A stretch of DNA of 26,370 nt from a virus: the UHGV virus genome UHGV-0117952, one strand, 5' to 3'. Below the pieces are notes generated by a model, which had not been told where the DNA came from, did no database searches, and worked only from the letters and a program-made list of their open reading frames with translations. Numbering within the stretch: the first letter of the stretch is position 1; each line of letters starts with the position of its first letter. A program made the translations under genes and the position numbers. Shown in pieces: positions 4,347 through 24,157 of this stretch.

Positions 4347-4495
4347 CGGCTGAATACCTCACTGATCGCTTCTTTGACTGCGCCAGCTACTGGCGCATTA
4401 ATCCTTTCGAATTGCTGAATATGCCGATCAGTGAAATTCCCTTACTGGTCAGTCAGGCAAACAGGATAGAGCAGGAGAAACGCACACATGGCTGA
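4077..4495 (+). CDS. tail assembly chaperone, long product by programmed -1 ribosomal frameshift
   Basis: Zero-frame codons GGT TTT TTC at 4326-4334 contain X_XXY_YYZ = T_TTT_TTC. The -1 frame continues open to 4495, overlapping the tape-measure start at 4488. Classic G/GT arrangement. Confidence 0.55.
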
Positions 4496-6320
4496 ATTTG
4501 AGCTTAAGGCGTTGATCACCGGTGTCGACAGGCTTTCTCCCGCGCTGTCGAAAATGCAAAAGAAAATCCGGGGATTTAAACGCCAGGCGGAAGAAGCGTC
4601 ACAGGGTGGGCTGGCGCTTGGGGGCGGACTGGCAGCGGGTCTGACGCTTTCCCTGAAATCTTATGCCGATCAGGAAAACGCCGCCACCGGGCTGAAAGTC
4701 GCCATGATGGATGCGAACGGCGAGGTTGGAAAGAGCTTTCAGGACATCAATAAACTGGCTATTGGCCTGGGTAACCAGCTACCTGGTACAACGGCTGATT
4801 TCCAGAACATGATGCAGATGCTGGTGCGTCAGGGGATCCCGGCAGAAAACATTCTGGATGGTGTGGGTAAAGCGACAGCTTATCTTGCGGTACAACTGAA
4901 AAAAACACCGGAAGCGGCTGCTGAGTTTGCTGCAAAGATGCAGGATGCTACCGGAACGGCGTCAGAAGACATGATGGGGCTGTTCGACACTATCCAGAAG
5001 GCGTTTTATCTGGGCGTTGACGATACCAACATGTTGTCCTTCTTCACTAAAACCAGTTCTGTTCTGAAGATGGTGAACAAGGATGGTCTTCAGGCTGCAC
5101 AGAGCCTTGCCCCCATCAGCGTCATGATGGATCAGATGGGGATGAACGGGGAGTCGGCAGGTAATGCCCTGCGAAAAGTTATCCAGTCCGGATTAAGCGT
5201 TAAGAAAATCAGGGACGTTAATAAAGTCATGGCCCGCCAGAAACTCGGGGTACAGCTCGATTTTACTGACGGCAAAGGAAGTTTTGGCGGTCTTGATAAC
5301 ATGTTCAGGCAACTGGCAAAGCTGCGAAAACTGACCGACGTTAAGCGAACAGGTGTACTTAAGGCAATATTTGGTGATGATGCCGAAACCCTTCAGGTGG
5401 TCAATGCACTAATCGATAAAGGAAAGGATGGCTACGATCAGATCCAGCAGAAGATGAATAAACAGGCCAGCCTGAATAAACGTGTTCAGGCACAGCTTGG
5501 TACGCTGTCCAACCTGTGGGAGGCAATGACAGGGACCGCAACTAACGGCCTTGCGGCTATTGGCGGCGCATTTTCTGGTGACGCTAAAAATATCACACAA
5601 TGGCTGGGGGAGTTGGGGGAGAAATTCACGAAGTTTGCGGATGAAAATCCCCGGGTTATTCGCGGCGTCGTCGGGCTTGCTGCCGGTCTTGCGATTCTGA
5701 AACTGGGATTGATGGGCGTGGGCAGTGCCATCAGTATTGTCAGCAGGATTATGTCGATGACGCCGATTGGCATGATTGCGACGGCGATTGCTCTGGCTGC
5801 GGGATTAATTATCACTAACTGGGATGTTGTCGGACCTTATTTCAAGAAGCTCTGGGAAACCATTTGTCCTTATTTTGAGGCAGGTTGGGAACTTCTGAAG
5901 AAGGTTTTTGCCTGGTCGCCGCTGGGGATGGTGATCAATAACTGGGGACCGGTTGTTAAGTGGTTTCAGGATATGTGGGACAAGCTGAAGCCAATTATTG
6001 AGTGGTTTACCGACAGTTCCGGTGACACGGTCGATGCCATTAACTCTGCGCAGTGGGGCGCGGGTGCTTATGATGCTTATGGGACGGGAATACCGGCGCG
6101 GGGATACACACCTTATCCGGCGGTGGATCCGGCTCAGTCAAACAACGCCTCCGATGCCACAGGCTCGAATCCCTTCATGATTAACAAAGCTTCTGTGCCA
6201 AAAGTTGATGGTGAGATCAAGGTATCTTTTGTGAATTCGCCTCCGGGTATGCGGGTTATGGAAACGCGATCCAGCGGTTTTGATGTCAGCCATGATGTTG
6301 GCTATACGCGGTTCAGGTAG
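4488..6320 (+). CDS. tail tape measure protein (Mu-like module)
   Basis: 610 aa, Ala/Gly/Leu/Gln-rich helical composition with a hydrophobic GxxxG-like C-terminal segment; sits directly after the chaperone frameshift pair. Confidence 0.85.
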   Translation: MAEFELKALITGVDRLSPALSKMQKKIRGFKRQAEEASQGGLALGGGLAAGLTLSLKSYADQENAATGLKVAMMDANGEVGKSFQDINKLAIGLGNQLPGTTADFQNMMQMLVRQGIPAENILDGVGKATAYLAVQLKKTPEAAAEFAAKMQDATGTASEDMMGLFDTIQKAFYLGVDDTNMLSFFTKTSSVLKMVNKDGLQAAQSLAPISVMMDQMGMNGESAGNALRKVIQSGLSVKKIRDVNKVMARQKLGVQLDFTDGKGSFGGLDNMFRQLAKLRKLTDVKRTGVLKAIFGDDAETLQVVNALIDKGKDGYDQIQQKMNKQASLNKRVQAQLGTLSNLWEAMTGTATNGLAAIGGAFSGDAKNITQWLGELGEKFTKFADENPRVIRGVVGLAAGLAILKLGLMGVGSAISIVSRIMSMTPIGMIATAIALAAGLIITNWDVVGPYFKKLWETICPYFEAGWELLKKVFAWSPLGMVINNWGPVVKWFQDMWDKLKPIIEWFTDSSGDTVDAINSAQWGAGAYDAYGTGIPARGYTPYPAVDPAQSNNASDATGSNPFMINKASVPKVDGEIKVSFVNSPPGMRVMETRSSGFDVSHDVGYTRFR

Positions 6321-8333: not shown

Positions 8334-9409
8334 ACGACAATGTCACGCTACGGGTAAATGGCCGGGAGTGGAATGGCTGGACATCGGTGCGCATCGGTGC
8401 CGGTATTGAACGGCTGGCGCGGGATTTCAGTGTGGAGATCACCCGCCAGTGGCCGGGAGATGAGGGTATCACCACGCTTCAGCCGCGCATTAAAAACGGT
8501 TCAAAAGTGGAGGTGCTGATTGGTGATGAGCTGGTGATCACCGGCTGGGTGGAGGCGACGCCCGTTCGTTACGATGCCCGTTCGGTCAGCACCGGTATTG
8601 CCGGACGTAGTCTGACGGCTGACCTGATTGACTGTGCAGCCGAACCGACACAGTTTAACGGACGCTCGCTGGTGCAGATTGCGCAGGCGCTTGCTGCGCC
8701 TTTCGGCATTGAGGTGGTGAACAGCGGTGCGCCGTCGGGTGTTATTCCTGATGTTCAGCCTGATCACGGTGAAACGGTGATTGAGGTAATAAACAAAATA
8801 CTCGGTCAGCAGCAGGCGCTGGCTTACGACGACCCGCACGGCAGGCTGGTGATTGGCGGTATTGGCTCAACGCGGGCACATACTGCGCTGGTACTCGGGG
8901 AAAACATCCTTTCCTGCGATACGGAGAAGAGTATCCGGGAGCGGTTTTCTGTTTACCAGGTGGCGGGGCAGCGTGCCGGAAACGACGATGATTTCGGTGA
9001 GGTCACCACCACCGCGCTGCGGGCCCGCACAGAGGACGCATTTATTGCCCGTTACCGTCCGATGTATATCAGGCAGACAGGGCAGGCTACGGGGGCAGGC
9101 TGTATTGCCCGTGCGGACTTTGAAGCCAGACAACGGGCGGCGCGGACGGATGAAACCACCTATGTGGTGCAGGGCTGGCGACAGGGTAACGGTACGCTGT
9201 GGCAGCCCAACCAGCGGGTGATTGTCTTTGATCCGGTCTGTGGTTTCGACAATACCGAACTGCTTGTTTCGGAAGTCACGTTTACTCAGGACCAGAACGG
9301 CACCCTGACGGAAATCCGTGTCGGCCCGCCTGATGCTTATCTGCCTGAACCCGAAGCCCCCGGCGCGCGGAAAAAGAAAAAAGCCAGAGTACAGGAGGAC
9401 CCGTTCTGA
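8330..9409 (+). CDS. baseplate hub protein (Mu gpP / P2 gpD-like)
   Basis: 359 aa ORF, ATGA overlap with the upstream gene; position and size match Mu P-family tail proteins. Confidence 0.75.
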   Translation: MNDNVTLRVNGREWNGWTSVRIGAGIERLARDFSVEITRQWPGDEGITTLQPRIKNGSKVEVLIGDELVITGWVEATPVRYDARSVSTGIAGRSLTADLIDCAAEPTQFNGRSLVQIAQALAAPFGIEVVNSGAPSGVIPDVQPDHGETVIEVINKILGQQQALAYDDPHGRLVIGGIGSTRAHTALVLGENILSCDTEKSIRERFSVYQVAGQRAGNDDDFGEVTTTALRARTEDAFIARYRPMYIRQTGQATGAGCIARADFEARQRAARTDETTYVVQGWRQGNGTLWQPNQRVIVFDPVCGFDNTELLVSEVTFTQDQNGTLTEIRVGPPDAYLPEPEAPGARKKKKARVQEDPF

Positions 9410-9957
9410 TGAGGACGATTGAAGCCATGCAGCGACAACTCCTCGGCCTGATTGGGCGGGCCGTGGTGAAAAGCATCAGTGCCGCCACGAAATGTCAGAC
9501 CGTGGATGTGTCCCTGATTGCCGGTGAACCCAAAGCCGGGGTTGAACATCTTGAACCCTACGGTTTTACCGCAAGGGCAAACAGCGGCGCGGAAGCGGTG
9601 GTGTTGTTTCCGGATGGCGACCGTTCTCATGCGGTGGTTGTTACGGTGTCGGACCGGCGCTACCGCCTGAAAGGGCTGCAGACGGGGGAGGTGGCTGTCT
9701 ATGACGATCAGGGGCAGTCCGTGACGCTGACCCGGGAGGGGATCGTGGTGGACGGTGCAGGTAAAACGATCACGTTTCGCAATTCACCTAAAGCACGTTT
9801 TGAAATGGACCTGGAAGTGACAGGACAGGTGAAAGACCTGTGCGACTCCGGCGGCACCACCATGTCAGCGATGCGGCTTGCCTATAACGGGCATCGTCAC
9901 AGAGAGAACGGTCAGGGCAGTAACACCGACAAACCGGATAAAGCGATGGAGGCATGA
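9409..9957 (+). CDS. baseplate assembly protein V / central spike (Mu gp45-like)
   Basis: 182 aa ORF, TGATG overlap; size and place in the gene order as for gpV-type spike proteins. Confidence 0.75.
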   Translation: MRTIEAMQRQLLGLIGRAVVKSISAATKCQTVDVSLIAGEPKAGVEHLEPYGFTARANSGAEAVVLFPDGDRSHAVVVTVSDRRYRLKGLQTGEVAVYDDQGQSVTLTREGIVVDGAGKTITFRNSPKARFEMDLEVTGQVKDLCDSGGTTMSAMRLAYNGHRHRENGQGSNTDKPDKAMEA

Positions 9958-10382
9958 TGGAACTGTGGCTGACGGTGAACGGTAAACGCACCTGCGCCAG
10001 CGCACCGCTGGATCCGCTGACCCGCGCCGTGGTGATTTCCCTGTTTACCTGGCGGCGGGCGGAGCCTGATGACAACGCCGACGTCCCGATGGGATGGTGG
10101 GGGGATACCTGGCCTGCGGTACAGAATGACCGTTACGGCTCCCGACTGTGGCTGCTTCAGCGCAGCAAATTGACCAATCAGCTGGTGCAGACGGTAAGGG
10201 GGTATATCCGCGAATGCCTGCAATGGATGATTGATGACGGCGTGGTGTCCCGTATTGATCTGGATATCCGCCGCACCGGGATTAATGAGCTGGGTAACAG
10301 TATCACCCTCTGGCGTCGTGACGGACCGGTAATGATTTCTTTTGATGATCTGTGGAGTGCGATAACGCATGGCGGACAGTGA
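9954..10382 (+). CDS. baseplate protein (Mu gp46 / P2 gpW-like)
   Basis: 142 aa ORF, ATGA overlap, between spike and baseplate J genes. Confidence 0.7.
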   Translation: MMELWLTVNGKRTCASAPLDPLTRAVVISLFTWRRAEPDDNADVPMGWWGDTWPAVQNDRYGSRLWLLQRSKLTNQLVQTVRGYIRECLQWMIDDGVVSRIDLDIRRTGINELGNSITLWRRDGPVMISFDDLWSAITHGGQ

Positions 10383-11427
10383 ATTTCAGCGCCCGACGCT
10401 GGCAGAAAATATCAGTATGCTCCGTAACGATTTATTCGCCAGGCTGGACGTCAGCGACACGCTCCGGCGCATGGATGAAGACGTGCGGGCAAAGGTGTAT
10501 GCGGCGGCGCTGCATACGGTTTACGGGTACATCGATTATCTGGCAATGAACATGCTGCCTGACCTGTGCGATGAGTCCTGGCTGGCGCGACATGCTGCGA
10601 TGAAACGGTGTCCGCGCAAGGGGGCCACGGCTGCCAGCGGGTATATGCGTTGGGAAGGTGTCAGCGATGGCCTGAAGGTGACCGCCGGGAGTGTTATTCA
10701 GCGCGATGACCTGGTTCAGTACACGGCAACTGCCGATGCAACCAGCTCCGGTGGTGTCCTGCGCGTGCCGATCGCCTGCTCAAGTGCAGGCGCGGTCGGT
10801 AACGCTGACGACGGTACGTCATTAATCCTGGTCACGCCGGTTAATGGTCTGCCGTCTTCCGGCGTGGCAGATACCCTTACAGGCGGATTTGATACTGAAG
10901 AGCTGGAAACGTGGCGCGCCCGCGTCATTGAGCGGTATTACTGGACGCCGCAGGGCGGGGCTGACGGGGACTATGTCGTCTGGGCTAAAGAAGTGCCCGG
11001 CATTACCCGCGCATGGACATACCGTCACTGGATGGGAACGGGAACTGTCGGTGTGATGATTGCCAGCAGTGACCTGATTAATCCCATTCCGGAAGAATCA
11101 ACGGAAACGGCGGCAAGACAACACATTGAGCCACTGGCCCCGGTGGCAGGCTCTGATTTGTATGTATTCAGGCCGGTGGCACATACGGTGGATTTTCATA
11201 TCCGCGTGACGCCGGACACACCGGAAATACGGGCTGCCATCACCGCGGAGTTGCGTTCGTTCCTGCTGCGTGATGGTTATCCGCAGGGAGAACTGAAGGT
11301 ATCGCGTATCAGTGAGGCGATTTCCGGTGCGAACGGGGAATACAGCCATCAGTTGCTTGCACCGGTGGACAATATCTCCATTGCGAAAAACGAACTGGCG
11401 GTACTGGGGACGATTTCATGGACGTGA
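10369..11427 (+). CDS. baseplate J-like protein (Mu gp47 / P2 gpJ-like)
   Basis: 352 aa ORF; length and position typical of the baseplate wedge J family. Confidence 0.8.
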
Positions 11428-12002
11428 CAAACGATGATTACATCCGCCTGTTATCGGCACTGTTGCCGCCCGGTCCGGCGTGGTCAGCCAGCGATCCGGC
11501 GATTGCCGGTGCGGCACCGTCATTAACCCGCGTTCATCAGCGTGCGGATGCCCTGATGCGGGAGCTGGATCCGCGCACCACCACCGAACTGATAAATCGC
11601 TGGGAGCGTCTGTGCGGCCTGCCGGATGAATGTATTCCCGCAGGGACACAGACCCTTCGCCAGCGTCAGCAACGACTGGATGCGAAGGTTAACCTGGCGG
11701 GCGGCATCAATGAGGATTTTTACCTTGCACAGCTTGCTGCCCTGGGCAGACCAGACGCTACCATCACGCGATACGACAAAAGCACTTTCACCTGCTCATC
11801 TGCCTGTACTGACGCGGTGAATGCGCCGGAATGGCGGTATTACTGGCAGGTCAACATGCCAGCCGCCACCAACACCACCTGGATGACATGTGGTGATCCC
11901 TGTAATTCCACATTGCGTATCTGGGGCGACACCGTTGTCGAGTGCGTGCTTAACAAACTCTGCCCGTCGCATACCTACGTAATTTTTAAATATCCGGAGT
12001 AA
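11418..12002 (+). CDS. tail protein (Mu gp48 / P2 gpI-like, YmfQ/DUF2313-type)
   Basis: 194 aa ORF immediately upstream of the tail fiber gene, Cys-containing C-terminus; position as for gpI/gp48. Confidence 0.75.
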
Positions 12003-12005
12003 TCC

Positions 12006-14867
12006 ATGCATCGTATAGACACGAAAACCGCGCAGAAGGATAAGTTCGGCGCGGGTAAGAACGGTTTTACCCGTGGCAACCCCCAGACCGGTACGCCTGC
12101 CACCGATCTGGATGATGACTACTTTGACATGTTGCAGGAAGAGCTTTGCAGTGTTGTGGAAGCATCCGGTGCCAGCCTGGAGAAGGGGCGGCATGACCAG
12201 CTGCTTACCGCGCTTCGTTCGCTGCTGTTAAGCCGCAAGAATCCGTTTGGCGACATCAAATTGGATGGCACGGTGAAAACTGCTCTCGAAAATCTTGGTT
12301 TAAGAGAGACAGGAAGCAGCGGTGAAAAGATCCCACTATTAAGCACAGAAAATACGTGGAGCGGCAGGCAGAGTTTCAATGGTGGTGTTGCTGGTGAACT
12401 GGACGGTAACGCAGCTACCGCATCAAAGCTTAAGACGCCAGTCAGGATTGACGGTGTTGAGTTTGATGGATCGGCGGATATTTCTCTGCGCCGCGACATC
12501 ATTGATTACGACGCCCTCCAGCATAAAGTAATTCATGATATCGACTACGCCGGTATTTTTGACGGCGCGGATAATATGAGCCAGGGGTTCTGTATCTGTG
12601 ATACGCCGCAGGGAACTAGAATGTTTCTGCATCAGCCTGTATCGGGTGGCGTAAGGATTGTTGAAACGATATTTAACCCTGACGGAGAAAACGAAAACCC
12701 GACGGTCATTTCGTTTTCTCCCGTTTTCGCTGATATTGGTCACCAGAGTATCGGGGCTGTATGTGAAGACGATCGCGTGATGCTGTATACCCCGACCGCT
12801 GACGGCAAGGGTGTGAATATCATCAACTGGAATGGGGCTGACACCAGTCTGACAGATGTCACCCGTACGGAGATTTTCACCTCTGACTTTTTTACCGGGG
12901 ATGAAATTATAACGGTGGCATTGTCGGCAGACGGAAGCCTGTTGATTGTTCAGTCAAGTAATGAAGCAGTTCATCTTCATTACAACATGGATGATCGCCG
13001 CACAGTTTATGTTTTCGATCGCGCCTCTCTGACGTTTAAACACCGGATTTATCTGTCCACTCAGCCAATGGTGTCGCAGGCATTTCAGGGGATGGCCAGC
13101 GATGGTCATTATCTGTTTGCTTATTACGGTTATACAGGCGTATTTCTGACTCACCGCATTGTTGTATATAACCTGTCAACGGGCGAAGTTGTCAGACAGT
13201 TCAATGTGGATGGCGTTCGTGCCAGGTATGGCCGCCAGAAAATGCTGGGGAATGCAGAGCTGGGGTATCCCGTTTTGCAGGAAGCCGAAGGGCTGGCTCT
13301 CCATAACGGAAAACTGTATCTGCTCGATATGGATTTCTGGTGTCAGACAGCCGATGTGGTTTCTTTTGAGGGGGCATACTTTGCAGCACGTGCAACAAAT
13401 TTTTCTGGCCGTTCCCCGGTGAATCCATCTTACTGGACGCCTACAGCATATGGAACGGCGGCTGCAACGAAATATGATGCCACGAAGTCTTATACGTGTG
13501 GCGTGGCGACAAAACGCAGCAAAGCTGTGGTTTCCGTGGAGGCTTACGACGGCACAGGCTATCTGGTGGACTCCGGCGTGGCGTTTCCTGACAGCCATGC
13601 TAGCCTTTTTCTGAGTCCCAATGCTGTAAATATTGCCCTGTCACCCAATGAAGACTTCCAGGTGGCAGCCTATGAGCAGAATCTGCGCTCGCATCGCCCG
13701 TTATTTGAGGTCAGAAAGGAGGCTCCGGATACAGACACTTCTGCTGCTGTTTTTCGTTTGTACGGGGATGCGTTCCGAACCGGAGAATACACAGGCCGCT
13801 TCGTTCAGTGGAAACACCGACTGAACACCGTGCACGATTGTCTGGAAATACGCGCTGACGTGGATTTGTTGAGCGGTGGCGGGATTAACCTTTACTCAAT
13901 GAACGATACTCAGTCGGCGGGGCGCACAAGGCTTTATTGTACCGATGGCAGTGAGACCTGGTCTGTATTATTGAGTCCGGTCTCGCCGGCATTTCATCCC
14001 GACCAGGACAAGGCAATGAATCTGGGGTCATCGCCAAATCGCTGGAATGTGGCATACCTGCAGGGCGTGAATATTAAATCGGATGACGAAACCCAGAAGC
14101 GCATGGCCATCAGCACCACGCTGAAGGCGGGAGCTTTCCAGGTATCAACAGCCGGGAATCTGGGTATTTATGACGATTCTGCTGACGCTTATGTAATTGC
14201 AGCCCGTAGTGACGGCACTGCATTCATGCAGATGGATACAGATATTAACGGTGCATTCCGGCCATCGGTTAACAATACCAGCGACCTGGGTGCGCCCAAC
14301 AAAGCGTTCCGGAGCGTGTATCTCTGCAACTCGCCGACCGTTGTGTCGGATGCGACGTTAAAGGATACACCGCGCGATGCGACGGCAGCCGAAAACGCGG
14401 CATTTGCAGAAATAGCACGGCTTCCGGGCGTGTGGCGCTGGTTACAGAGAATTGAGGAGGAGGGCGAGGACGCGCGTCTGCACGCCGGGCCGACAGTCCA
14501 GGCCGCGATAGCGGTGATGGAGAAACACGGTCTGGACTGGCGGAAATACAGCGCATTTTGTCTGGATTCGTGGGAAGCGGAGGAGGCACAGTACGAAGAT
14601 ATACCGGAAGAGTATGAAGATATTCCGGTTCAGCCAGAGATTTATTCGGATGAAGGGGAGCTGTTGAGCGGGACAACCCGTGTGCTTACCCGACAGGCGG
14701 AAAGGGTTCTTGTTCGCCCTGCAACCGAAGCAGGAAGCCGTTATCGCTTCCGGAAAGAGGAGCTTCTCTGGTGGTGTCTACGTGCTGTTGTCAGCCAGGT
14801 GGATTTGTTAATGGAACGCTTTGTTGACTTAAATCGTCGTTTGATGAAGTTGGAGACTTCAGAATAA
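12006..14867 (+). CDS. tail fiber protein (953 aa) with candidate C-terminal S74-like intramolecular chaperone domain
   Basis: GGAG Shine-Dalgarno before ATG 12006. N-terminus resembles baseplate-attachment domains of myovirus fibers. Lower-GC central region. C-terminus contains VSDATLKD...[13 protein letters not shown], reminiscent of the SDxxLK...HxGxIAQ pattern of peptidase S74 chaperone domains. Confidence 0.8.
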
Positions 14868-15010
14868 ACAAGCCTTAATGAGTATCTGCTTAAAATAGTG
14901 TTATCTACAGATCAAACTTTAGTTGATACGAGTCACTGTCCTCCCCGTAACAACTGGAGTTAAAAGATGTGATGGCATATAAATATAACATCAAATAATT
15001 ATTTTTTTTT

Positions 15011-15040
15011 GCCCCTCACCCTTAATTTAGGGTGAGGGGC
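15011..15040. repeat. perfect 11-bp GC-rich inverted repeat (hairpin) with 8-nt spacer, flanked 5' by T9
   Basis: GCCCCTCACCC (15011-15021), TTAATTTA, GGGTGAGGGGC (15030-15040); T-run at 15002-15010 is upstream on the plus strand, so not a canonical intrinsic terminator in either orientation. Confidence 0.5.
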
Positions 15041-15079
15041 GTCAGATACAAAGTTAGGAGTATCTGTAGTTAAGTGTTT

Positions 15080-16169
15080 TTATATTTTTTCGCAAAAAGA
15101 AGAATAATCTCCACAGATTAAGCAACTGACAAGCTCTCTTTGTGCGGGATATATTTGGGACTCATTTACAAGCCCTGTATATGGTAAGAGTGATTTATGT
15201 ATCAAGTTAAAAACGTGAGACTTCTCATTAGTTGTTAAACTTTTTTTGGATAATATGGATGCCAAGTGCTCAACGCAAATAACCAGCCATGCATTAAACA
15301 TTTTTACTATTTCTGCTTCATTTTTATTGCTTGATAAGATATAAATCAAACCTGTTTGTAATACCAAGGCTCTTTGTTTAATGGAGAAAGATGTTTTAGA
15401 TAGATGTGGTTCTTCATGGCGATTCAGAGAGTAGTAGCCCTTTCTTGCCAGTATAGATATCGTATTAGCTACAGTTAGGCTCTGGCAAGAAAAAAGCATA
15501 TCCTCATAGACTGAAATTGATGGGTTAAATAAGATGTTGTTATTGATTAGCAACTCTCTTTTAAAGAACTTGAAGATTTTTAATGATCTAAAAAGATGGT
15601 TTTTTATAATATCTGCTTTATTCGTGTCTGCCTTAAATGGGCGTACAGGAACCCCTCTCCCTGTAGAGGAAACCTGCTTGAAATATACAATGTCACTATT
15701 GTTTTTATAAGCTATCTGAATACCATCGGACAGTAAGTCAGAGTGAATGGAATCATCAGAGTCTAAGAAAAACACATAGCGACCTTTTGCGGATTTTATT
15801 CCCTCATTTCGCGGCGCTGATGCATTCCCTGAACCAACTGCTCTACGGATAATACGATAATTTATTTCTCTCGAAATGTTATATTCAATGGCGGCAATGC
15901 TCCTGTCAGTGGAACAGTCATCAATGAAAATAACTTCAAAACAATTTTTATCTATAGTCTGATTGTTTAAAGATTTAATGCATTCGAGAATAAGGGTTTC
16001 TCGGTTGTGAACCGGAATAACAACTGAGACATCAAAGGGATAAATAGAATTAATTTCATTAATTACCGTTGTGATTTTTAGAAGAGAAGTATGCAGGGCT
16101 GTTGTTAAAACAGCAGAAGATGAAATGTTTTCTTTTTTAGTGTTGCCTTTTATAGTATAATAAGGGCAA

Positions 16170-16198
<29 letters not shown>
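15080..16198 (-). CDS. family-2 (GT-A fold) glycosyltransferase body; probable phase-variable gene
   Basis: 372 aa in this frame, with GT2 hallmarks VSVVIPVHNRE, FIDDCSTD, FFLDSDDS. About 30% GC. Frame has only a GTG start at 16198 with no usable Shine-Dalgarno and is open upstream through the repeat tract to a stop at 16265-16267. Confidence 0.8.
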
Positions 16199-16409
<211 letters not shown>

Positions 16410-16523
16410 TATGCAACCTCTAACGTTAATAATGTTTATGAATATTCAGAATGCTATCTCATAACATGAAGCATTATATCTGAACATTGTGACATGATTT
16501 AATGAAGTCATCAGCACATCATG

Positions 16524-16539
16524 CTGCAATGCATTGCAG
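16524..16539. promoter_or_regulatory. perfect 16-bp palindrome CTGCAATGCATTGCAG upstream of the glycosyltransferase locus (candidate operator)
   Basis: Read directly; lies about 115-130 bp upstream of the leader ATG (16409), and about 50 bp upstream of a TATAAT-like element on the minus strand (plus-strand 16474-16479). Confidence 0.35.
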
Positions 16540-16685
16540 TATAACTAACACGAGGGATTGTTTGCATGGTGATAGTTTTGTTGGTGATAAAATCAGCATA
16601 ATTAAATATGTTGGCGTACATTTTGAACATTTTTAAGCAAAGCAAATTATAAGTATAAAAATAGTTAATGTGAAGTTGTACTCAT

Positions 16686-16717
16686 GTAAAAAGCCCCGCA
16701 TTCTCTCGAAGGCGGGG
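16686..16717 (-). terminator. rho-independent terminator, minus-strand orientation
   Basis: Minus-strand RNA: CCCCGC, 12-nt loop, GCGGGG, then CUUUUU (plus-strand stem arms 16694-16699 / 16712-16717, A-run 16688-16692). Confidence 0.5.
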
Positions 16718-16810
16718 AAGATTTGAAAATTAATGGTACAAATTGACGATTTCATATTCTATTCTGTATTAGAATAAAAGTGAATATAATTATTTATTTT
16801 AGGTGATTTT

Positions 16811-16838
16811 TTAAAAAAAGCCCGTGGAAGCAACGGGC
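16811..16838 (-). terminator. rho-independent terminator, minus-strand orientation
   Basis: Minus-strand RNA: GCCCGU, 7-nt loop, ACGGGC, followed by U7 (plus-strand stem 16820-16825 / 16833-16838, A7 at 16813-16819). Confidence 0.55.
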
Positions 16839-17452
16839 ATAAAACGCGGAATTGATTAAGATCTGTATAATTTAATTTTCTGATTCTATCATGCATATCA
16901 TTCACAGTGAAGTTGGTAATTTAGTAAAACTAGTGATAATGCCACTCGGTTTGATAACAAGAGAAACCACAGCGTGGTTTCGTCGAACAGTTTATGAAGG
17001 ATATTCCCCCCAAATATACACTCGCTTTGTGCTGTAGCAGCGCAGATGCTGGTTGCTATTCTTACCGGGAACTGGGCTTACAAGGCAATAGTAGTGTGAC
17101 ATTCTTCATCGCGCACGTGCATATCCTGGCTGAAAATCGATGGATAGAAAATATCCGCAAAGGGAAGCGGAGCAGCATACCGTGGTGGGGGGCACATGTA
17201 TGGGGTGTTGGAAGTCTGATGGATTTCTTTGTACCAGACAGCTTGTATTTTCATCTTTTCTTTGTTTCTTTGCAGGTAATTATGAGTAGCAACAAATCCT
17301 GAATGGCTGGGTATACCGCAATAAATAGAGGCGGGCAAGTTGCCCACTTTTTCTTTATCTGTTGTTTCATCCACTGCCCAGCCAGGTCAAATAGCGTCTC
17401 ATGCTTCGCACAACAGAAAATAGTTGCACCCATTAACCACGGAGTTAAACGG

Positions 17453-18643
17453 ATGAGTGACTATCATCACGGCGTGCAGGTGCTGGAGATTAACGACGGC
17501 ACCCGCGTCATTTCCACCGTATCCACCGCCATTGTTGGCATGGTCTGCACGGCCAGCGATGCGGATGCGGAAACCTTCCCCCTCAATAAACCGGTGCTGA
17601 TCACCAATGTGCAGAGCGCGATTGCAAAGGCCGGTAAAAAAGGCACGCTGGCGGCATCGTTGCAGGCCATCGCTGACCAGTCAAAACCGGTCACCGTTGT
17701 CGTGCGCGTGGAAGACGGCACCGGCGACGACGAAGAAACGAAACTCGCGCAGACCGTTTCCAATATCATCGGCACCACTGACGAAAACGGTCAGTACACC
17801 GGACTGAAAGCCCTGCTGGCGGCGGAGTCGGTAACCGGTGTTAAACCGCGTATTCTCGGTGTGCCGGGACTGGATACCAAAGAGGTGGCTGTTGCACTGG
17901 CATCCGTCTGTCAGAAGCTGCGCGCTTTCGGGTATATCAGCGCATGGGGCTGTAAAACCATTTCCGAGGTGAAAGCCTACCGCCAGAATTTCAGCCAGCG
18001 TGAGCTGATGGTCATCTGGCCGGATTTCCTCGCATGGGATACGGTCACCAGTACCACCGCCACCGCGTATGCCACCGCCCGTGCGCTGGGTCTGCGCGCT
18101 AAAATCGACCAGGAGCAGGGCTGGCATAAAACGCTGTCCAACGTCGGGGTAAACGGTGTTACCGGCATCAGCGCCTCTGTATTCTGGGATTTGCAGGAGT
18201 CCGGCACCGATGCTGACCTGCTTAACGAGTCAGGCGTCACTACGCTGATTCGCCGCGACGGTTTCCGCTTCTGGGGTAACCGTACCTGCTCTGATGACCC
18301 ACTGTTTCTCTTTGAAAACTACACCCGCACCGCGCAGGTGCTGGCCGACACGATGGCTGAGGCGCACATGTGGGCGGTGGACAAGCCCATCACCGCAACG
18401 CTGATTCGCGATATCGTTGACGGCATCAATGCCAAATTCCGTGAGCTGAAAACAAACGGCTATATCGTGGATGGCTCATGCTGGTTCAGCGAAGAATCCA
18501 ACGATGCGGAAACCCTCAAGGCCGGAAAACTGTATATCGACTACGACTATACACCGGTGCCTCCTCTCGAAAACCTGACCCTGCGCCAGCGTATTACCGA
18601 TAAATACCTGGCAAATCTGGTCACCTCGGTTAACAGCAATTAA
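17453..18643 (+). CDS. FI: P2-type tail sheath protein FI
   Basis: Track ORF starts at 17303, but ATG 17453 (MSDYHHGVQVLEIND...) has GGAG at 17441-17444 and matches the recalled P2 FI N-terminus; 396 aa. Confidence 0.9.
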   Translation: MSDYHHGVQVLEINDGTRVISTVSTAIVGMVCTASDADAETFPLNKPVLITNVQSAIAKAGKKGTLAASLQAIADQSKPVTVVVRVEDGTGDDEETKLAQTVSNIIGTTDENGQYTGLKALLAAESVTGVKPRILGVPGLDTKEVAVALASVCQKLRAFGYISAWGCKTISEVKAYRQNFSQRELMVIWPDFLAWDTVTSTTATAYATARALGLRAKIDQEQGWHKTLSNVGVNGVTGISASVFWDLQESGTDADLLNESGVTTLIRRDGFRFWGNRTCSDDPLFLFENYTRTAQVLADTMAEAHMWAVDKPITATLIRDIVDGINAKFRELKTNGYIVDGSCWFSEESNDAETLKAGKLYIDYDYTPVPPLENLTLRQRITDKYLANLVTSVNSN

Positions 18644-19659: not shown

Positions 19660-22099
19660 CAATGTAAAATTACAGGTATTGCTCAGGGCTGTTGACCAGG
19701 CATCCCGCCCGTTTAAATCCATCCGCACAGCGAGCAAGTCGCTGTCGGGGGATATCCGGGAAACACAAAAATCACTGCGCGAGCTGAACGGTCAGGCGTC
19801 CCGTATTGAGGGATTTCGCAAGACCAGTGCGCAGCTCGCCGTGACTGGTCAGGAACTGAAAAAAGCCAGACAGGAAGCCGCAGCTCTGGCTGTCCAGTTT
19901 ACAAATACTGAACGACCGACAAATGCACAGGCAAAGGCAATGGAAGCCGCGCGTAAAAACGCGTCTGAGTTACAGGCGAAATATAACAGCCTGAGATTGT
20001 CGGTACAGCGCCAGCGTCAGGAATTGAGTCAGGCGGGTATTAATACCCGTAATCTGGCGCATGATGAACGAGGGCTGAAAAATCGTATCAGCGAAACCAC
20101 CACACAGCTTAACCGTCAGCGTGATGCGCTGGCGCGTGTCAGTGCGCAACAGGCAAAACTTAATGCAGTAAAACAGCGTTATCAGGTCGGAAAGGAACTG
20201 GCCGGAAATATGGCCTCGGTGGGCGCTGCCGGTGTGGGTATTGCGGCGGCGGGAACGATGGCCGGAGTTAAGCTGCTGATGCCCGGTTATGAGTTTGCGC
20301 AGAAAAACTCAGAATTACAGGCCGTGCTCGGTGTGGAAAAAGACTCTGCCGAAATGGCCGCGCTACGCAAGCAGGCGCGCCAGCTCGGCGACAATACCGC
20401 CGCCTCGGCAGATGATGCAGCCGGTGCACAGATTATCATCGCGAAAGCGGGTGGGGATGTTGATGCCATTCAGGCGGCAACGCCGGTCACGCTGAACATG
20501 GCGCTGGCGAACCGCCGCACGATGGAAGAAAACGCCGCCCTGCTGATGGGGATGAAATCCGCCTTTCAGCTTTCAAACGATAAGGTCGCTCATATCGGGG
20601 ATGTTCTCTCCATGACGATGAACAAAACCGCCGCCGATTTTGATGGCATGAGCGATGCGCTGACCTATGCCGCACCTGTGTCAAAAAATGCTGGTGTCAG
20701 CATTGAAGAAACCGCCGCAATGGTCGGGGCGCTGCATGATGCAAAAATTACCGGTTCAATGGCGGGGACGGGAAGCCGTGCCGTGTTAAGCCGCCTGCAG
20801 GCACCGACGGGAAAAGCATGGGATGCACTGAAAGAGCTTGGCGTGAAAACCTCAGACAGTAAGGGAAACACCCGGCCAGTATTTACCATTCTGAAAGAAA
20901 TGCAGGCCAGCTTTGAGAAAAACCGGCTCGGTACTGCCCAGCAGGCTGAATACATGAAAACTATTTTCGGGGAGGAGGCCAGCTCAGCCGCCGCCGTGCT
21001 GATGACTGCCGCCTCAACCGGAAAGCTGGACAAACTGACCGCTGCGTTTAAAGCCTCAGACGGGAAGACCGCCGAGCTGGTAAATATCATGCAGGACAAC
21101 CTAGGCGGTGACTTTAAAGAGTTTCAGTCCGCTTATGAGGCGGTGGGGACTGACCTGTTTGACCAGCAGGAAGGCGCACTGCGTAAGCTCACGCAGACGG
21201 CCACAAAGTATGTGTTAAAACTCGACGGCTGGATCCAGAAAAACAAATCACTGGCGTCAACCATCGGACTTATTGTCGGTGGTGCACTGGCACTGATTGG
21301 TGTCATCGGTGCCATTGGCCTCGTAGCCTGGCCGGTTATCACCGGCATCAATGCCATCATCGCGGCAGCAGGCGCAATGGGGGCAATCTTCACGACGGTT
21401 GGCAGTGCTGTTATGACCGCCATCGGAGCGATTAGCTGGCCGGTTGGGGCCGTGGTGGCCGCCATTGTCGCCGGGGCGTTGCTTATCCGTAAATACTGGG
21501 AGCCTGTCAGCGCATTCTTTGGCGGTGTGGTGGAAGGGCTGAAAGCGGCATTTGCGCCGGTGGGGGAACTGTTCACGCCACTTAAGCCGGTGTTTGACTG
21601 GTTGGGCGAAAAGTTACAGGCCGCGTGGCAGTGGTTTAAAAACCTGATTGCCCCGGTTAAAGCCACCCAGGACACCCTGAACCGTTGCCGTGACACGGGC
21701 GTCATGTTCGGGCAGGCACTGGCTGACGCGTTGATGCTGCCGCTTAATGCGTTCAACAAACTGCGCAGTGGTATTGACTGGGTACTGGAAAAACTCGGTG
21801 TTATCAACAAAGAGTCAGACACACTTGACCAGACCGCCGCCAGAACTCATGCCGCCACGTATGGCACCGGTGGTTATATTCCGGCGACCAGCTCTTATGC
21901 AGGCTATCAGGCTTATCAGCCGGTTACGGCACCGGCTGGCCGCTCTTATGTGGACCAGAGTAAAAACGAATATCACATCAGTCTGACGGGCGGTACTGCG
22001 CCGGGGACTCAGCTCGACCGCCAGTTACAGGATGCGCTCGAAAAATATGAGCGGGATAAACGTGCGCGCGCCCGTGCCAGCATGATGCATGACGGTTAA
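19652..22099 (+). CDS. T: P2-type tail tape measure protein gpT
   Basis: 815 aa, coiled-coil-rich N-terminal half and hydrophobic glycine-zipper segment; follows E/E'. Confidence 0.9.
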   Translation: MSNNVKLQVLLRAVDQASRPFKSIRTASKSLSGDIRETQKSLRELNGQASRIEGFRKTSAQLAVTGQELKKARQEAAALAVQFTNTERPTNAQAKAMEAARKNASELQAKYNSLRLSVQRQRQELSQAGINTRNLAHDERGLKNRISETTTQLNRQRDALARVSAQQAKLNAVKQRYQVGKELAGNMASVGAAGVGIAAAGTMAGVKLLMPGYEFAQKNSELQAVLGVEKDSAEMAALRKQARQLGDNTAASADDAAGAQIIIAKAGGDVDAIQAATPVTLNMALANRRTMEENAALLMGMKSAFQLSNDKVAHIGDVLSMTMNKTAADFDGMSDALTYAAPVSKNAGVSIEETAAMVGALHDAKITGSMAGTGSRAVLSRLQAPTGKAWDALKELGVKTSDSKGNTRPVFTILKEMQASFEKNRLGTAQQAEYMKTIFGEEASSAAAVLMTAASTGKLDKLTAAFKASDGKTAELVNIMQDNLGGDFKEFQSAYEAVGTDLFDQQEGALRKLTQTATKYVLKLDGWIQKNKSLASTIGLIVGGALALIGVIGAIGLVAWPVITGINAIIAAAGAMGAIFTTVGSAVMTAIGAISWPVGAVVAAIVAGALLIRKYWEPVSAFFGGVVEGLKAAFAPVGELFTPLKPVFDWLGEKLQAAWQWFKNLIAPVKATQDTLNRCRDTGVMFGQALADALMLPLNAFNKLRSGIDWVLEKLGVINKESDTLDQTAARTHAATYGTGGYIPATSSYAGYQAYQPVTAPAGRSYVDQSKNEYHISLTGGTAPGTQLDRQLQDALEKYERDKRARARASMMHDG

Positions 22100-22113
22100 G
22101 GAGGTGACGAAAA

Positions 22114-22593
22114 ATGATGCTCGCGTTAGGTATGTTTGTTTTTATGCGCCAGACGCTGCCACACCAGACCATGCAGCGTGAATCAGATTATCGCTGGCCG
22201 TCAAATTCCCGTATCGGTAAACGGGATGCCTACCAGTTTCTCGGCGTTGGTGAGGAAAACATGACGCTTGCCGGTGTGCTTTATCCCGAACTGACCGGCG
22301 GCAAGCTGACGATGACCACGCTCAGACTGATGGCAGAGGAAGGCCGGGCGTGGCCGTTGCTGGATGGCACAGGCATGATTTACGGCATGTATGTCATCAG
22401 CAGGGTGAGTGAAACAGGGAGTATTTTCTTTGCAGACGGCACACCCCGGAAAATTGATTTTACGCTGTCACTCACCCGCGTGGATGAATCACTGGCCGCG
22501 CTTTATGGCGATATCGGTAAACAGGCAGAATCGCTCATCGGTAAGGCTGGCAGTATGGCGACTAAATTCACGGGGATGACGGGGGCGGAATAA
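22114..22593 (+). CDS. U: P2-type tail protein gpU
   Basis: 159 aa; position after T and conserved-looking core (PHQTMQRESDYRWPSNSRIGKRDAYQFLG). Confidence 0.85.
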   Translation: MMLALGMFVFMRQTLPHQTMQRESDYRWPSNSRIGKRDAYQFLGVGEENMTLAGVLYPELTGGKLTMTTLRLMAEEGRAWPLLDGTGMIYGMYVISRVSETGSIFFADGTPRKIDFTLSLTRVDESLAALYGDIGKQAESLIGKAGSMATKFTGMTGAE

Positions 22594-23756
22594 TGCTGGA
22601 TGCGCTGACATTTGATGCAGGCAGTACGCTGACGCCGGATTACATGCTGATGCTCGACAGCAGGGATATTACCGGCAATATCAGCGACCGTCTGATGAGT
22701 ATGACCCTGACGGATAACCGGGGCTTTGAGGCTGACCAGCTTGATATTGAACTGAACGATGCCGACGGGCAGGTCGGGCTGCCGGTTCGTGGCGCTGTCC
22801 TGACGGTGTATATCGGCTGGAAAGGTTTTGCCCTGGTATGCAAAGGGAAATTCACCGTTGATGAGGTTGAACACCGGGGCGCACCGGATGTGGTCACCAT
22901 CCGCGCCCGGAGTGCAGATTTTCGCGGGACGCTCAATTCCCGCCGTGAAGGCTCATGGCATGACACCACGCTCGGTGCGATTGTTGAGGCGATAGCCTCC
23001 CGTAACAGGCTGGAAGCCAGTGTCGCGCCGTCACTGGCAGGAATTAAAATCCCGCACATCGACCAGTCGCAGGAGTCTGATGCGAAATTCCTGACCCGTC
23101 TTGCTGAACGCAACGGCGGTGAGGTGTCGGTAAAAATGGGAAAACTGCTGTTTCTCAAAGCGGGGCAGGGGGGGACGGCCAGCGGTAAAAAAATCCCGCA
23201 GATTACCATCACCCGCAGCGACGGCGACCGTCATCATTTTGCGATTGCTGACCGCGGAGCCTATACAGGCGTAACGGCAAAGTGGTTACACACCAAAGAC
23301 CCGAAACCGCAAAAGCAGAAGGTAAAACTGAAACGCAAAAAGAAAGAGAAACACCTGCGCGCACTGGAGCACCCGAACGCGAAACCGGTCAGGCAGAAGA
23401 AAGCGCCTAAAGTACCGGAAGCGCGTGAAGGTGAATACATGGCCGGTGAGGCTGACAACGTTTTTGCCCTGACCACGGTATATGCCACGAAAGCGCAGGC
23501 CATGCGCGCCGCTCAGGCGAAGTGGGATAAGCTGCAACGGGGCGTTGCGGAGTTCTCCATCAGTCTGGCTACCGGTCGTGCTGATATTTACACGGAAACA
23601 CCGGTTAAAGTGTCAGGCTTTAAGCGCGTCATAGACGAGCAGGACTGGACAATCACTAAGGTGACACATTTTCTGAATAATAGCGGCTTCACGACGTCCT
23701 TGGAGCTTGAGGTCAGGCTTTCTGATGTGGAGTACGAAACAGAAGATGATGAGTGA
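22593..23756 (+). CDS. D: P2-type late control / tail protein gpD
   Basis: 387 aa, start overlaps the U stop; N-terminus MLDALTFDAGSTLTPDYMLMLDSRDITG recognised as gpD family. Confidence 0.9.
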   Translation: MLDALTFDAGSTLTPDYMLMLDSRDITGNISDRLMSMTLTDNRGFEADQLDIELNDADGQVGLPVRGAVLTVYIGWKGFALVCKGKFTVDEVEHRGAPDVVTIRARSADFRGTLNSRREGSWHDTTLGAIVEAIASRNRLEASVAPSLAGIKIPHIDQSQESDAKFLTRLAERNGGEVSVKMGKLLFLKAGQGGTASGKKIPQITITRSDGDRHHFAIADRGAYTGVTAKWLHTKDPKPQKQKVKLKRKKKEKHLRALEHPNAKPVRQKKAPKVPEAREGEYMAGEADNVFALTTVYATKAQAMRAAQAKWDKLQRGVAEFSISLATGRADIYTETPVKVSGFKRVIDEQDWTITKVTHFLNNSGFTTSLELEVRLSDVEYETEDDE

Positions 23757-23837
23757 TGTTTTTATTTTATCTGTTTGTTTTATAAGGATAAATTAACTAA
23801 AATGGCACCATCAACAAAACCGGAAGAGGTGCTCGCG

Positions 23838-24056
23838 ATGTTTCATTGTCCTTTATGCCAGCATGCCGCACATGCGCGTACAAGCCGCTATATCACTGAC
23901 ACGACAAAAGAGCGTTATCACCAGTGTCAGAACGTGAATTGCAGCGCCACGTTCATCACTTATGAGTCGGTACAGCGATACATCGTGAAGCCGGGAGAAG
24001 TCCACGCCGTAAGACCGCACCCGTTGCCGTCAGGGCAGCAAATTATGTGGATGTAA
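23838..24056 (+). CDS. ogr: Ogr/Delta-family zinc-finger late-gene transcription activator
   Basis: Track ORF starts at 23775, but ATG 23838 (MFHCPLCQHAAHARTSRYI...CQNVNC) has GGAAGAGG 8 nt upstream and gives the 72-aa Cys4 protein typical of P2 Ogr. Confidence 0.85.
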   Translation: MFHCPLCQHAAHARTSRYITDTTKERYHQCQNVNCSATFITYESVQRYIVKPGEVHAVRPHPLPSGQQIMWM

Positions 24057-24067
24057 TTACAAACAGG

Positions 24068-24093
24068 AAGCCCCTCAGTCGAGGGGCTTTTTT
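24068..24093 (+). terminator. rho-independent terminator downstream of ogr
   Basis: GCCCCTC (24070-24076), loop AGTC, GAGGGGC (24081-24087), then TTTTTT (24088-24093). Confidence 0.7.
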
Positions 24094-24157
24094 GTCGATG
24101 TGGTCAATGTGTGGACGTGACCAGAAATAAATCCTTTTATTTCATTGTATTATGCGT

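Follow-up and report, generated by a model that had tools for sequence, protein, structure and literature searches.

The question raised by this locus is how a large tail spike reaches its folded state when no tail-fibre-assembly (tfa) gene follows its own. The literature describes an intramolecular chaperone and a separate Tfa protein as alternative solutions (PMC11990801), and in the window (the whole stretch of 26,370 nucleotides analysed here) a domain homologous to the former was found at the C terminus of the spike itself. Taken as a whole, it is probable that the gene specifies a modular homotrimeric spike with an S74 chaperone, that its body and chaperone form a mobile cassette, and that its sequence here is an SfV/P2 hybrid allele at a likely misjoin.

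Domain layout and the C-terminal chaperone

The ORF (Table 1) encodes 953 amino acids and holds all of the motifs quoted in a preliminary description of this DNA. PHROG 19921, "tail spike protein," covered residues 153 to 953 with 1872 bits in the PHROG scan, and the NCBIfam scan assigned no family to the protein. A Mu gp48-like gene at 11418-12002 precedes the spike, whose first ~300 nt share 93 to 94% nucleotide identity with the orf21 "short tail fiber" genes of SfV, SfI, SfII, and SfIV. PHROG 1396 and PHROG 2617 matched the same N terminus, and residues 83 to 162 matched several unrelated tail-fibre PHROGs. A monomer AF2 model (pLDDT 83, pTM 0.76) supports the propeller that follows. Residues ~465 to 660, of which 549 to 659 had a pLDDT of about 75 to 90, aligned jointly with the propeller to the model of the GA-1 neck appendage. 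The pLDDT of the stalk was low, as expected of an obligate trimer modeled as a monomer, and this region aligned to the pre-chaperone regions of T5 pb1, 7y5s, 9vvr, and the endosialidases 4hiz and 1v0e.

Table 1. Positions of the spike gene, its domains, and neighbouring features in the window
Feature	Residues	Position	Strand	Basis or remark
Tail spike / receptor-binding protein ORF	953 aa	12006..14867 (including stop codon)	+	ORF list
N-terminal baseplate adaptor, SfV/Mu-like prophage type	1-100	12006..12305	+	Nucleotide identity, PHROG matches
Shaft/linker with common fibre motif (28 letters)	101-168	12306..12509	+	PHROG matches
Five-bladed beta-propeller, probable glycan-binding receptor domain	~169-464	12510..13397	+	Predicted
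Further all-beta domain(s)	~465-660	13398..13985	+	AF2 model, alignment to GA-1 appendage model
Stalk before cleavage site, expected trimeric beta-helix	~661-780	13986..14345	+	Alignments to pre-chaperone regions
C-terminal intramolecular chaperone domain (Peptidase_S74)	781-953	14346..14864	+	PF13884, PDB alignments, profile
Ser781 codon	781	14346-14348	+	Residue positions
Lys786 codon	786	14361-14363	+	Residue positions
Stretch identical in the EC02 (SfV-type) and REL606 (P2-type) copies		13353..14804	+	Three-way nucleotide alignment
GT2-family glycosyltransferase moron, GC 0.36 island		15080..16198	-	PF00535, E 3e-28; PHROG GtrB-like O-antigen conversion
(CCAG)13 tetranucleotide tract between leader ORF and GT2 frame		16201..16255	-	TRF
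Frameshifted remnant of small PHROG 1443 gene		17010..17236	+	tblastn

The preliminary description had likened the C terminus to the chaperone of S74-type fibres and proposed a Pfam comparison with Peptidase_S74. This comparison bore out the likeness: PF13884 matched residues 781 to 843 over the full model (1 to 58) with an E value of 1.9e-9 and 38.1 bits, above the curated cut-off of 22, and a precomputed PF13884 annotation is present on the same protein. A phmmer search of the PDB returned T5 pb1 (4uw8) as the best solved match (E 1e-14, residues 711 to 864), with further matches to 7y5s, 6eu4, 9vvr, the chaperone of K1F endosialidase (3gw6), and that of GA-1 (3gud). The family profile matched six solved chaperone domains with E values of 1e-22 to 7e-32, as far as the C-terminal helix. 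It also aligned residues 567 to 780 to the stalks of 7y5s and 9vvr, which leaves the last 173 residues as the chaperone.

In T5 pb1, Ser1264 is the scissile residue, Lys1269 activates it, and R1250 of the neighbouring chain, at position -14, helps to form the oxyanion hole (PMC4690869). The segment S781-D-A-T-L-K786 aligned with (S1264A)-DARLK1269 of T5 and with SDARLK of Kp7, with the Ser/Lys spacing of T5, and VVSDA(T/E)LKD was kept in all S74-bearing relatives aligned. The position of R1250 is occupied by Ala here; the nearest arginine is R769 at -12, an offset shared with the 6eu4 spike, so that one mechanistic residue, the oxyanion-hole Arg, appears to be conserved only approximately. Cleavage is predicted between V780 and S781. 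The resulting fragment of about 173 residues would fall within the 150 to 200 residues anticipated in the preliminary description, compared with 133 residues released in T5.

With K1F endosialidase and T5 pb1 as models, we infer the following course of assembly. Residues 1 to 100 would dock on a Mu/SfV-type baseplate and be followed by the short shaft, the propeller, the beta domains, and the stalk. Three C-terminal domains would start trimerisation and stalk folding. When the stalk has taken its proper shape, Ser781, with Lys786 as its activator, would cut the chain at the predicted site and free a fragment of ~20 kDa. Each chain of the mature spike, which would bind its glycan, would then measure ~85 kDa.

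Both model systems resemble the spike in part. T5 pb1 shares the scissile Ser, the Lys at +5, and a trimeric chaperone, which in T5 is removed after folding, but its receptor domain has a unique "bullet" fold and binds oligomannose, and its Arg is at -14 instead of -12. The endosialidases of K1F and phi92 (3gw6, 1v0e, 4hiz) have the same order of adaptor, propeller, stalk, and chaperone, likewise have no separate chaperone gene, and are homologous to the window spike in stalk and chaperone. Their propeller, a sialidase, has six blades, whereas that of the window spike is five-bladed and of the phi11 type. An endosialidase identity was rejected on account of this other type of propeller and of a sub-threshold match to Pfam End_tail_spike (PF12219; 15.1 bits versus a cut-off of 25) that spans only 27 residues (661 to 687).

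The propeller and its probable ligand

In the model, the propeller has five blades and the same topology as the phi11 Gp45-like receptor-binding proteins (RBPs). Its best structural matches were the phage RBPs of phi11, P68, NF5, and 80alpha, plus non-glycosidase propellers. The architecture of the phi11 RBP has been described together with a modeled GlcNAc cavity, and no enzymatic activity was reported for it (PMC4901313). The propeller most likely binds a surface glycan.

It is possible, if somewhat doubtful, that the propeller is instead an enzyme, i.e., a polysaccharide depolymerase or an esterase that breaks down the receptor, and not purely a lectin-like binder. The residues Q361, G375, E426, E428, and G429 are invariant, and the acidic pair E426/E428, set in a (Q)E-x-EGL motif, is kept across 50 relatives, which would suit a catalytic site; such acidic residues could equally bind metal or sugar. 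The layout parallels that of the endosialidases, propeller enzymes with the same chaperone, and the database label reads "tail spike." However, the closest folds are those of non-enzymatic RBPs and non-glycosidase propellers, the phi11 protein among them, and neither Pfam nor NCBIfam detected a glycosidase family in the spike. Glycan binding remains the reading that we prefer.

The likeness to the phi11 Gp45 group (80alpha, P68, NF5; 5efv, 6v8i, 6iab, 9m7x) is one of fold and not of family membership. These proteins belong to phages of Gram-positive hosts, share 11 to 15% identity with the window spike, and have an alpha-helical coiled-coil stem and C-terminal "tower" domains, with no S74 chaperone described (PMC4901313), whereas the window spike has neither helical stem nor tower. 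Profile searches yielded only E values of 0.03 to 0.06, to P68 and NF5. The closest whole-body analogue was the neck appendage gp12 of the Bacillus phage GA-1 (Q9FZW3), whose predicted structure aligned with the spike over 607 columns (E 2e-32, TMq 0.65, 20% identity). It ends in a C-terminal chaperone (3gud), as the window spike does, but is a podovirus appendage for a Gram-positive host with another N-terminal attachment, and only its chaperone has been solved experimentally. This fold link to appendages and RBPs of phages with Gram-positive hosts could repay experiments.

Base composition had been taken in the preliminary description as a sign that the central domain was exchanged. The AT-richer block is real, with a GC content of 0.489 at 12300-13400 versus 0.519 for the whole gene, and it roughly overlaps the predicted propeller. 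The difference is small, however, and lies within the spread of other phage genes, in which windows of 1,100 nt had a GC content of 0.549 ± 0.044 and 8.7% were at 0.489 or lower, so that the dip was rejected as evidence of domain exchange. What stands is that the central domain is a propeller of the receptor-binding type; what is exchanged, in contrast, is body and chaperone as a whole.

Host serotypes were also considered as a guide to the receptor. E. coli B REL606 has an O7 cluster, disrupted by IS1, one carrier of the SfV-type allele is O7:H4, and O86-family clusters occur in two independent GT2-type carriers. With carriers of both O7 and O86 and no single O-type, this approach was dropped.

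A mobile cassette and a hybrid allele

An exhaustive search yielded 141 representatives of the spike family. Body and chaperone (residues ~160 to 953) are exchanged as a single piece between unrelated phages, and only the N-terminal adaptor is swapped. This cassette was found behind SfV/Mu-type, P2-type, and N4-like N termini: residues 160 to 953 are 98% identical to the P2-type protein WP_000104717.1 of E. coli B REL606, residues 191 to 950 are 98% identical to the SfV-type protein of EC02, and gp75 of the N4-like phage Pollock shows about 80% nucleotide identity to the cassette. A literature search found nothing specific on the E. coli B prophage spike or on the function of Pollock gp75.

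The REL606 protein, labelled "phage tail protein" (PHROG 19921) and encoded in a defective P2-like prophage, has the propeller, stalk, chaperone, GT2 neighbour, and last 20 codons of the window spike, but a P2 gpH-type N terminus with the tail-collar domain PF12571, where the window protein is of the SfV type. PF12571 is carried by P2-type alleles of the spike, and P2-type homologues differ from the window spike upstream of about position 12516. Pfam gave no match to PF12571 (DUF3751) in the window spike, whose N terminus is of the SfV orf21 type, with no gpG after the gene. The EC02/P0001 protein shares propeller, stalk, and chaperone but differs in its final ~20 residues, and a PHROG 1443 gene follows it instead of GT2. 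The spike can thus be seen as a receptor-binding cassette used behind three virion adaptors, which would make it useful for host-range engineering, as it should need no partner gene. For annotation, a missing tfa gene is to be expected next to it and is not a defect, and the protein is essentially that of the E. coli B prophage.

The window is one whole short-read SPAdes metagenome contig (NODE_900, coverage 10.4), with a Mu/SfV-like tail module to the left of the spike and a P2-like tail module to the right. Up to position 13352, all informative sites are of the EC02 type, with one private SNP at 12988, and from 14805 onward all are of the REL606 (B) type. The 1.45 kb in between (13353..14804) contain only two private SNPs, and the parent switches somewhere inside. 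By this alignment, the 953-aa sequence is a hybrid of an SfV-prophage and a P2-prophage allele. No other contig was found with exactly this protein, while the cluster of the intact SfV-type allele P0001 counts 609 members.

It is more likely that the join of the two prophages is an assembly misjoin than that it reflects real chromosome structure, and the gene and its neighbours may therefore be an assembly chimera. The adjacency of spike and GT2 belongs to the P2-type parent and may be physically unlinked to the SfV-type 5' half. The alternative, which we consider unlikely, is a faithful contig and a genuine hybrid gene, produced by homologous recombination between two near-identical cassettes, one in an SfV-like prophage at dusA and the other in a P2-like prophage at yegQ, with an inversion of the DNA between them and hybrid prophage ends as the outcome. 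The shared 1.45 kb would be ample for RecA, and this identity implies past exchange between the prophage lineages. By the MG1655 gene orientations of the standard E. coli map, combined with the orientations observed in the prophages, the two spike genes point in opposite directions, so that recombination would invert the DNA and not cause a lethal deletion. The hybrid ORF, moreover, is intact. However, the join was absent from all 5,426 complete E. coli genomes, and none of them carries both cassettes, the 29 with the GT2 island excluding the three SfV-type carriers; a genome with both would have accounted for an inversion as well as for a misjoin caused by the repeat. Such an inversion would take in about 2 Mb and be asymmetric around the origin, the exact protein was found on a single short-read contig, and many draft assemblies break inside the spike gene, which marks it as hard to assemble. 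Under the favored reading of a misjoin, a short-read contig can cross from one prophage into another through near-identical receptor-binding cassettes, and arguments from the neighbourhood of such genes need read-level checks.

The absent assembly gene and the neighbouring glycosyltransferase

Fibre genes in the same slot after the baseplate wedge gene, i.e., P2 gpH with gpG, SfV orf21 with orf22, and Mu-type fibres with Tfa, need a Tfa encoded immediately downstream, whereas the window has a propeller spike with its own chaperone and no such gene. Pfam gave no hit at all for eight small ORFs of the window that lie after the spike and before the sheath gene (14868 to 17450), and PHROG and NCBIfam scans of selected small ORFs in the window found none. 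Four Tfa queries (P2 G, SfV orf22, and two from E. coli), compared by tblastn with the six frames of the window, reached E values of about 0.1 to 1 at best. A hidden tfa gene was rejected on these grounds, in agreement with the preliminary description, which had found no tfa/G/U-type gene and had correctly named the oppositely oriented glycosyltransferase as the next gene. A tfa gene follows the conventional fibre in SfV, in P2, and in an SfV-like prophage of APEC. Where the same prophage backbones bear this spike, tfa is missing, in three genomic contexts besides the window. Domain homology, the absence of Tfa, and this comparative context agree with the earlier proposal that a built-in S74 chaperone explains the missing gene. 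They support the view that no Tfa/gpG/gpU-type gene would be needed because the chaperone is part of the spike.

In the SfV-type context and in one of the P2 type, the spike is directly followed by a PHROG 1443 gene of 94 to 95 aa, and tblastn with the 95-aa ORF of EC02 detected its remnant in the window in two frames (E 2e-17). This ORF is unlikely as a substitute chaperone, as it has no family function, a hydrophobic, membrane-like N terminus by eye, and is frameshifted here. Very improbable, in our estimate, is a spike whose S74 domain is a non-cleaving relic and whose folding is helped in trans, e.g., by the PHROG 1443 protein or host chaperones: the small ORF does follow the spike elsewhere and the oxyanion-hole Arg is two residues off its T5 position, but the relatives keep both Ser and Lys, which are intact here, all 173 residues of the domain align to chaperone domains that are solved and functional, an Arg at -12 also occurs in 6eu4, another S74-bearing spike, and the small ORF, unlike known Tfa proteins, has no family annotation.

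The GT2 gene occupies the slot between fibre and sheath that is filled by fun(Z) in P2 (layout H-G-fun(Z)-FI). Its island was found in 29 complete genomes, always adjoining a P2-type spike. Spike and GT2 might form a functional pair, in which GT2, switched stochastically by slipped-strand changes in the (CCAG)n tract, modifies the surface glycan bound by the propeller, but we regard this as rather unlikely. If true, it would provide superinfection exclusion or keep progeny from sticking to lysogens, and the locus would be a prophage-borne simple-sequence-repeat contingency locus in E. coli. Classical phase variation in this species proceeds by inversion or methylation, and a literature search found nothing on switching by CCAG/CTGG repeats in E. 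coli. A repeat-switched glycosyltransferase beside a spike could repay experiments, and E. coli B itself carries the GT2/(CCAG)n locus.

The leader ORF upstream of GT2 (16170-16409) carries the ATG and Shine-Dalgarno (SD) sequence and is out of frame with GT2 in the window. As a separate observation, the (CCAG)n tract is hypervariable, with 7 to 66 units in eight genomes, in one of which it lies within a fused frame of 513 aa.

Gene context of the spike

The 953-amino-acid ORF that the preliminary description had called a mosaic tail fiber is present, with all motifs quoted for it inside the frame, and the oppositely oriented glycosyltransferase gene said to follow it was found as a GT2 gene. 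The protein, here called the spike, has a near-identical counterpart in E. coli B, catalogued as PHROG 19921, "tail spike." Upstream of the gene lies a complete Mu/SfV-like tail module and downstream, beyond the GT2 island, lie P2-type genes; within the window, the spike gene therefore sits between two different sets of contractile-tail genes. The window lacks the P2 baseplate genes V-W-J-I as well as the SfV-type integrase end. Two other assignments of the spike were rejected, namely a P2 gpH-type fiber, as tail-collar domain and gpG are lacking, and an endosialidase, for which the Pfam match fell under the threshold.

Features of the window and of compared loci, with GC content where calculated
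Feature	Coordinates	Strand	GC	Remark
Sheath gene	2225-3721			Mu/SfV-like tail module, upstream of spike
Tape measure gene	4488-6320			Mu/SfV-like tail module
Mu gp45-, gp46-, and gp47-like genes				Mu/SfV-like tail module, upstream of spike
gp48-like gene	11418-12002			immediately 5' of spike
Spike gene	12006-14867	+		953 amino acids
Spike, N terminus			0.522	
Spike, residues 160-560			0.499	
Spike, residues 561-782			0.532	
Spike, chaperone			0.547	
The two tail modules			0.54-0.56	
GT2 gene	15080-16198	-	0.36 (island)	opposite strand to spike
(CCAG)13 tract	16201-16255	-		perfect tetranucleotide repeat
Leader ORF	16170-16409			ATG with good Shine-Dalgarno sequence at 16409
PHROG 1443 remnant	17010-17236	+		frameshifted, displaced behind GT2 island
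FI, FII, E, T, U, D, and ogr	from ~17453			P2-type, beyond GT2 island
yegQ	24329-25690			chromosomal gene, after ogr
PHROG 1443 gene, L004 (EC02 locus)	23864-24151			directly follows spike
PHROG 1443 gene, L009 (compared locus)	5879-6163			directly follows spike
Spike copy, L004 (EC02 locus)	21006-23861			disrupted
O-antigen genes, L010 (GT2 carrier)	9342-10857			impaired
O-antigen genes, L011 (GT2 carrier)	16183-17581			impaired
O-antigen genes, L012 (GT2 carrier)	4545-5943			impaired

Chaperone domain and absence of tfa

Residues 781 to 843 matched the full Pfam model of Peptidase_S74 (PF13884) with 38.1 bits, at a curated cutoff of 22 bits. Sequence searches of the PDB aligned residues 711 to 864 with the T5 L-shaped fiber pb1 (4uw8; E = 1e-14) and also returned the Klebsiella phage fiber 7y5s, the spikes 6eu4 and 9vvr, and the chaperones of the K1F endosialidase (3gw6) and the GA-1 appendage (3gud). 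With a 50-member family profile, the chaperone matches rose to E values of 7e-32 to 1e-22, and the alignments to solved chaperone domains extended through the C-terminal helix, which at the sequence level indicates homology over the entire stretch from 781 to 953. Judged by these matches, the spike is a predicted member of Peptidase_S74, as had been proposed from its C-terminal motifs.

In T5, the bond cut is Thr1263-Ser1264, with Ser1264 activated by Lys1269, and cleavage needs a correctly folded trimeric stalk (PMC4690869). The spike segment VV-S781-DATL-K786 aligns to T5 (S1264A)-DARL-K1269; by analogy, cleavage between V780 and S781 would free 173 residues (~20 kDa) and leave a mature chain of ~85 kDa. 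The oxyanion-hole arginine of T5, 14 residues before the serine, aligns to an alanine; the closest spike arginine is at -12, the same offset as in 6eu4, and the residue thus appears conserved only approximately.

No relevant Pfam match was obtained for eight small window ORFs between the spike and the downstream sheath gene, and the whole window, translated in six frames, gave a best E value of about 0.1 against P2 gpG, SfV orf22, and two Tfa proteins from E. coli. The case becomes stronger by comparison with tfa-bearing relatives: conventional fibers are followed by tfa in SfV (orf21 and orf22) and P2 (H and G), and in an APEC SfV-like prophage a gp53-like fiber precedes two tfa genes plus an invertase, whereas backbones of the same kinds that carry the spike (REL606, EC02, and strain C7) have no tfa gene. 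All of these lines agree with the earlier claim that an assembly gene is missing. In sister phages of a phage collection, an intramolecular chaperone and a separate Tfa are described as alternatives (PMC11990801). Chaperone homology, absence of tfa, and comparative context together support the earlier reading of a built-in chaperone in place of tfa, with self-cleavage suggested by analogy. A C-terminal chaperone, presumably self-cleaving, without Tfa would be a solution shared with the K1F endosialidase, T5 pb1, and GA-1 gp12.

Predicted central propeller, mosaic structure, and contig join

An exhaustive search yielded 141 family representatives with 25 to 35% identity over residues ~183 to 700, and Q361, G375, E426, E428, and G429 were invariant in a 50-sequence alignment. 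The AlphaFold2 model of residues 160 to 782 (mean pLDDT 83, pTM 0.76; pLDDT mostly >90 across 169 to 529) is all-beta; its strands, about twenty, form five groups of four, and Foldseek structural matches agree with a five-bladed propeller. In a viral model library, the neck appendage of Bacillus phage GA-1, whose C-terminal chaperone is among the S74 structures that have been solved, gave an alignment of 607 columns (E = 2e-32, TMq 0.65). The phi11 receptor-binding protein is a fold-level relative only; its propeller "platform" is a proposed GlcNAc-binding site, with no enzymatic activity reported (PMC4901313). From the fold matches and the role of this platform, we read the spike center as a putative glycan-binding propeller. 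Catalysis is possible but unsupported, the pointer being the invariant acidic pair.

The AT-richer central block noted previously is real and lies roughly at the propeller, although such a dip is not unusual: GC is 0.489 at 12300 to 13400, and among windows of this size from the other phage genes, 8.7% have values as low. Homology shows the mosaicism more clearly. Over its first ~300 nt, the gene is 93 to 94% identical to SfV/SfI/SfII-type fiber genes, and from residue ~160 onward the protein is 98% identical to a P2-like prophage protein of E. coli B REL606 with a P2 tail-collar-type N terminus. The spike of an SfV-like prophage in strain EC02 likewise shares 98% identity with it, and in Pollock, an N4-like lytic phage, the same body stands behind yet a different N terminus. 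Since one body stands behind SfV-, P2-, and Pollock-type N termini, the alignments identify body plus chaperone as the predicted exchanged unit, with interchangeable adaptors. The central receptor-binding or enzymatic domain proposed earlier is thus retained as a propeller, but the exchanged unit is larger.

The window is the entire ENA contig ERZ1756037 NODE_900_length_26370_cov_10.4, and the exact 953-amino-acid protein was found on this contig only. In a three-way nucleotide alignment with EC02 and REL606, all informative sites up to 13352 were of the EC02 (SfV) type, except for a private SNP at 12988. From 13353 to 14804 the window matched both alleles, bar two private SNPs, and from 14805 onward it was of the REL606 (P2) type, a part that takes in the final ~20 codons, the GT2 gene, and the P2 tail genes. 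A survey of 5,426 complete E. coli genomes found the SfV-type allele in 3, P2-type alleles in about 80, and the GT2 island in 29, with a P2-type allele alongside every time; neither the allele combination of the window nor both cassettes together occurred in any. The spike gene often breaks short-read assemblies: in drafts, many contigs terminate inside it, which is consistent with repeated or near-identical copies. We consider the join to be probably a misassembly across the 1.45-kb exact repeat; the less likely alternative is a rare but genuine inversion involving the dusA and yegQ prophages.

The domain-level conclusions are independent of this question, as each parent allele exists intact elsewhere, the SfV type as P0001 (951 amino acids, 609 cluster members) and the P2 type in REL606. 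The physical linkage of the SfV-type N terminus to the downstream GT2 gene does depend on the join. The EC02 copy shares 99.9% nucleotide identity with the window over 12006 to 14804, and its annotation consists of a pseudogene fragment (stfP) and a 761-amino-acid ORF; other samples have P0001 intact. Dozens of NCBI E. coli drafts (proteins P0003 to P0049) carry a "partial" spike at a contig end, and the contigs cut within it are often 200 to 300 kb long.

GT2 gene and (CCAG)n tract

On the minus strand, the (CCAG)13 tract separates the start of the leader ORF from the GT2 frame, which has GTG starts only. Across eight E. coli genomes (loci L001 and L013 to L018 included) with near-identical flanks, the tract has 7, 7, 11, 12, 13, 20, 35, and 66 units. 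Seven of the eight, the window and REL606 among them, have it out of frame; only strain 4069 (66 units) has an in-frame allele, annotated as a single 513-amino-acid GT2 protein. Between laboratory derivatives of E. coli B, the tract differs by 4 and 40 nt, multiples of 4. By sequence, it looks like a slipped-strand contingency (phase-variation) switch on a prophage glycosyltransferase, and no description of this repeat-switched locus was found in the searched literature.

A PHROG 1443 protein of 94 to 95 amino acids, with an N terminus that by eye looks hydrophobic, is encoded directly after the spike in the SfV-type context and in one P2-type context. Its remnant behind the GT2 island suggests that insertion of the GT2 moron separated the spike from the PHROG 1443 gene.

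The inspected GT2-prophage carriers have impaired O-antigen genes, which may be coincidence or annotation artifact; IS1 adjoins wbbD in the O7 cluster of REL606, and wzy is annotated as frameshifted in two O86-family strains. In DETEC-P881 and PCP07014 (search matches H15 and H34), the IS21-like element ISEc12 (istA/istB) is annotated within the spike-GT2-sheath match.
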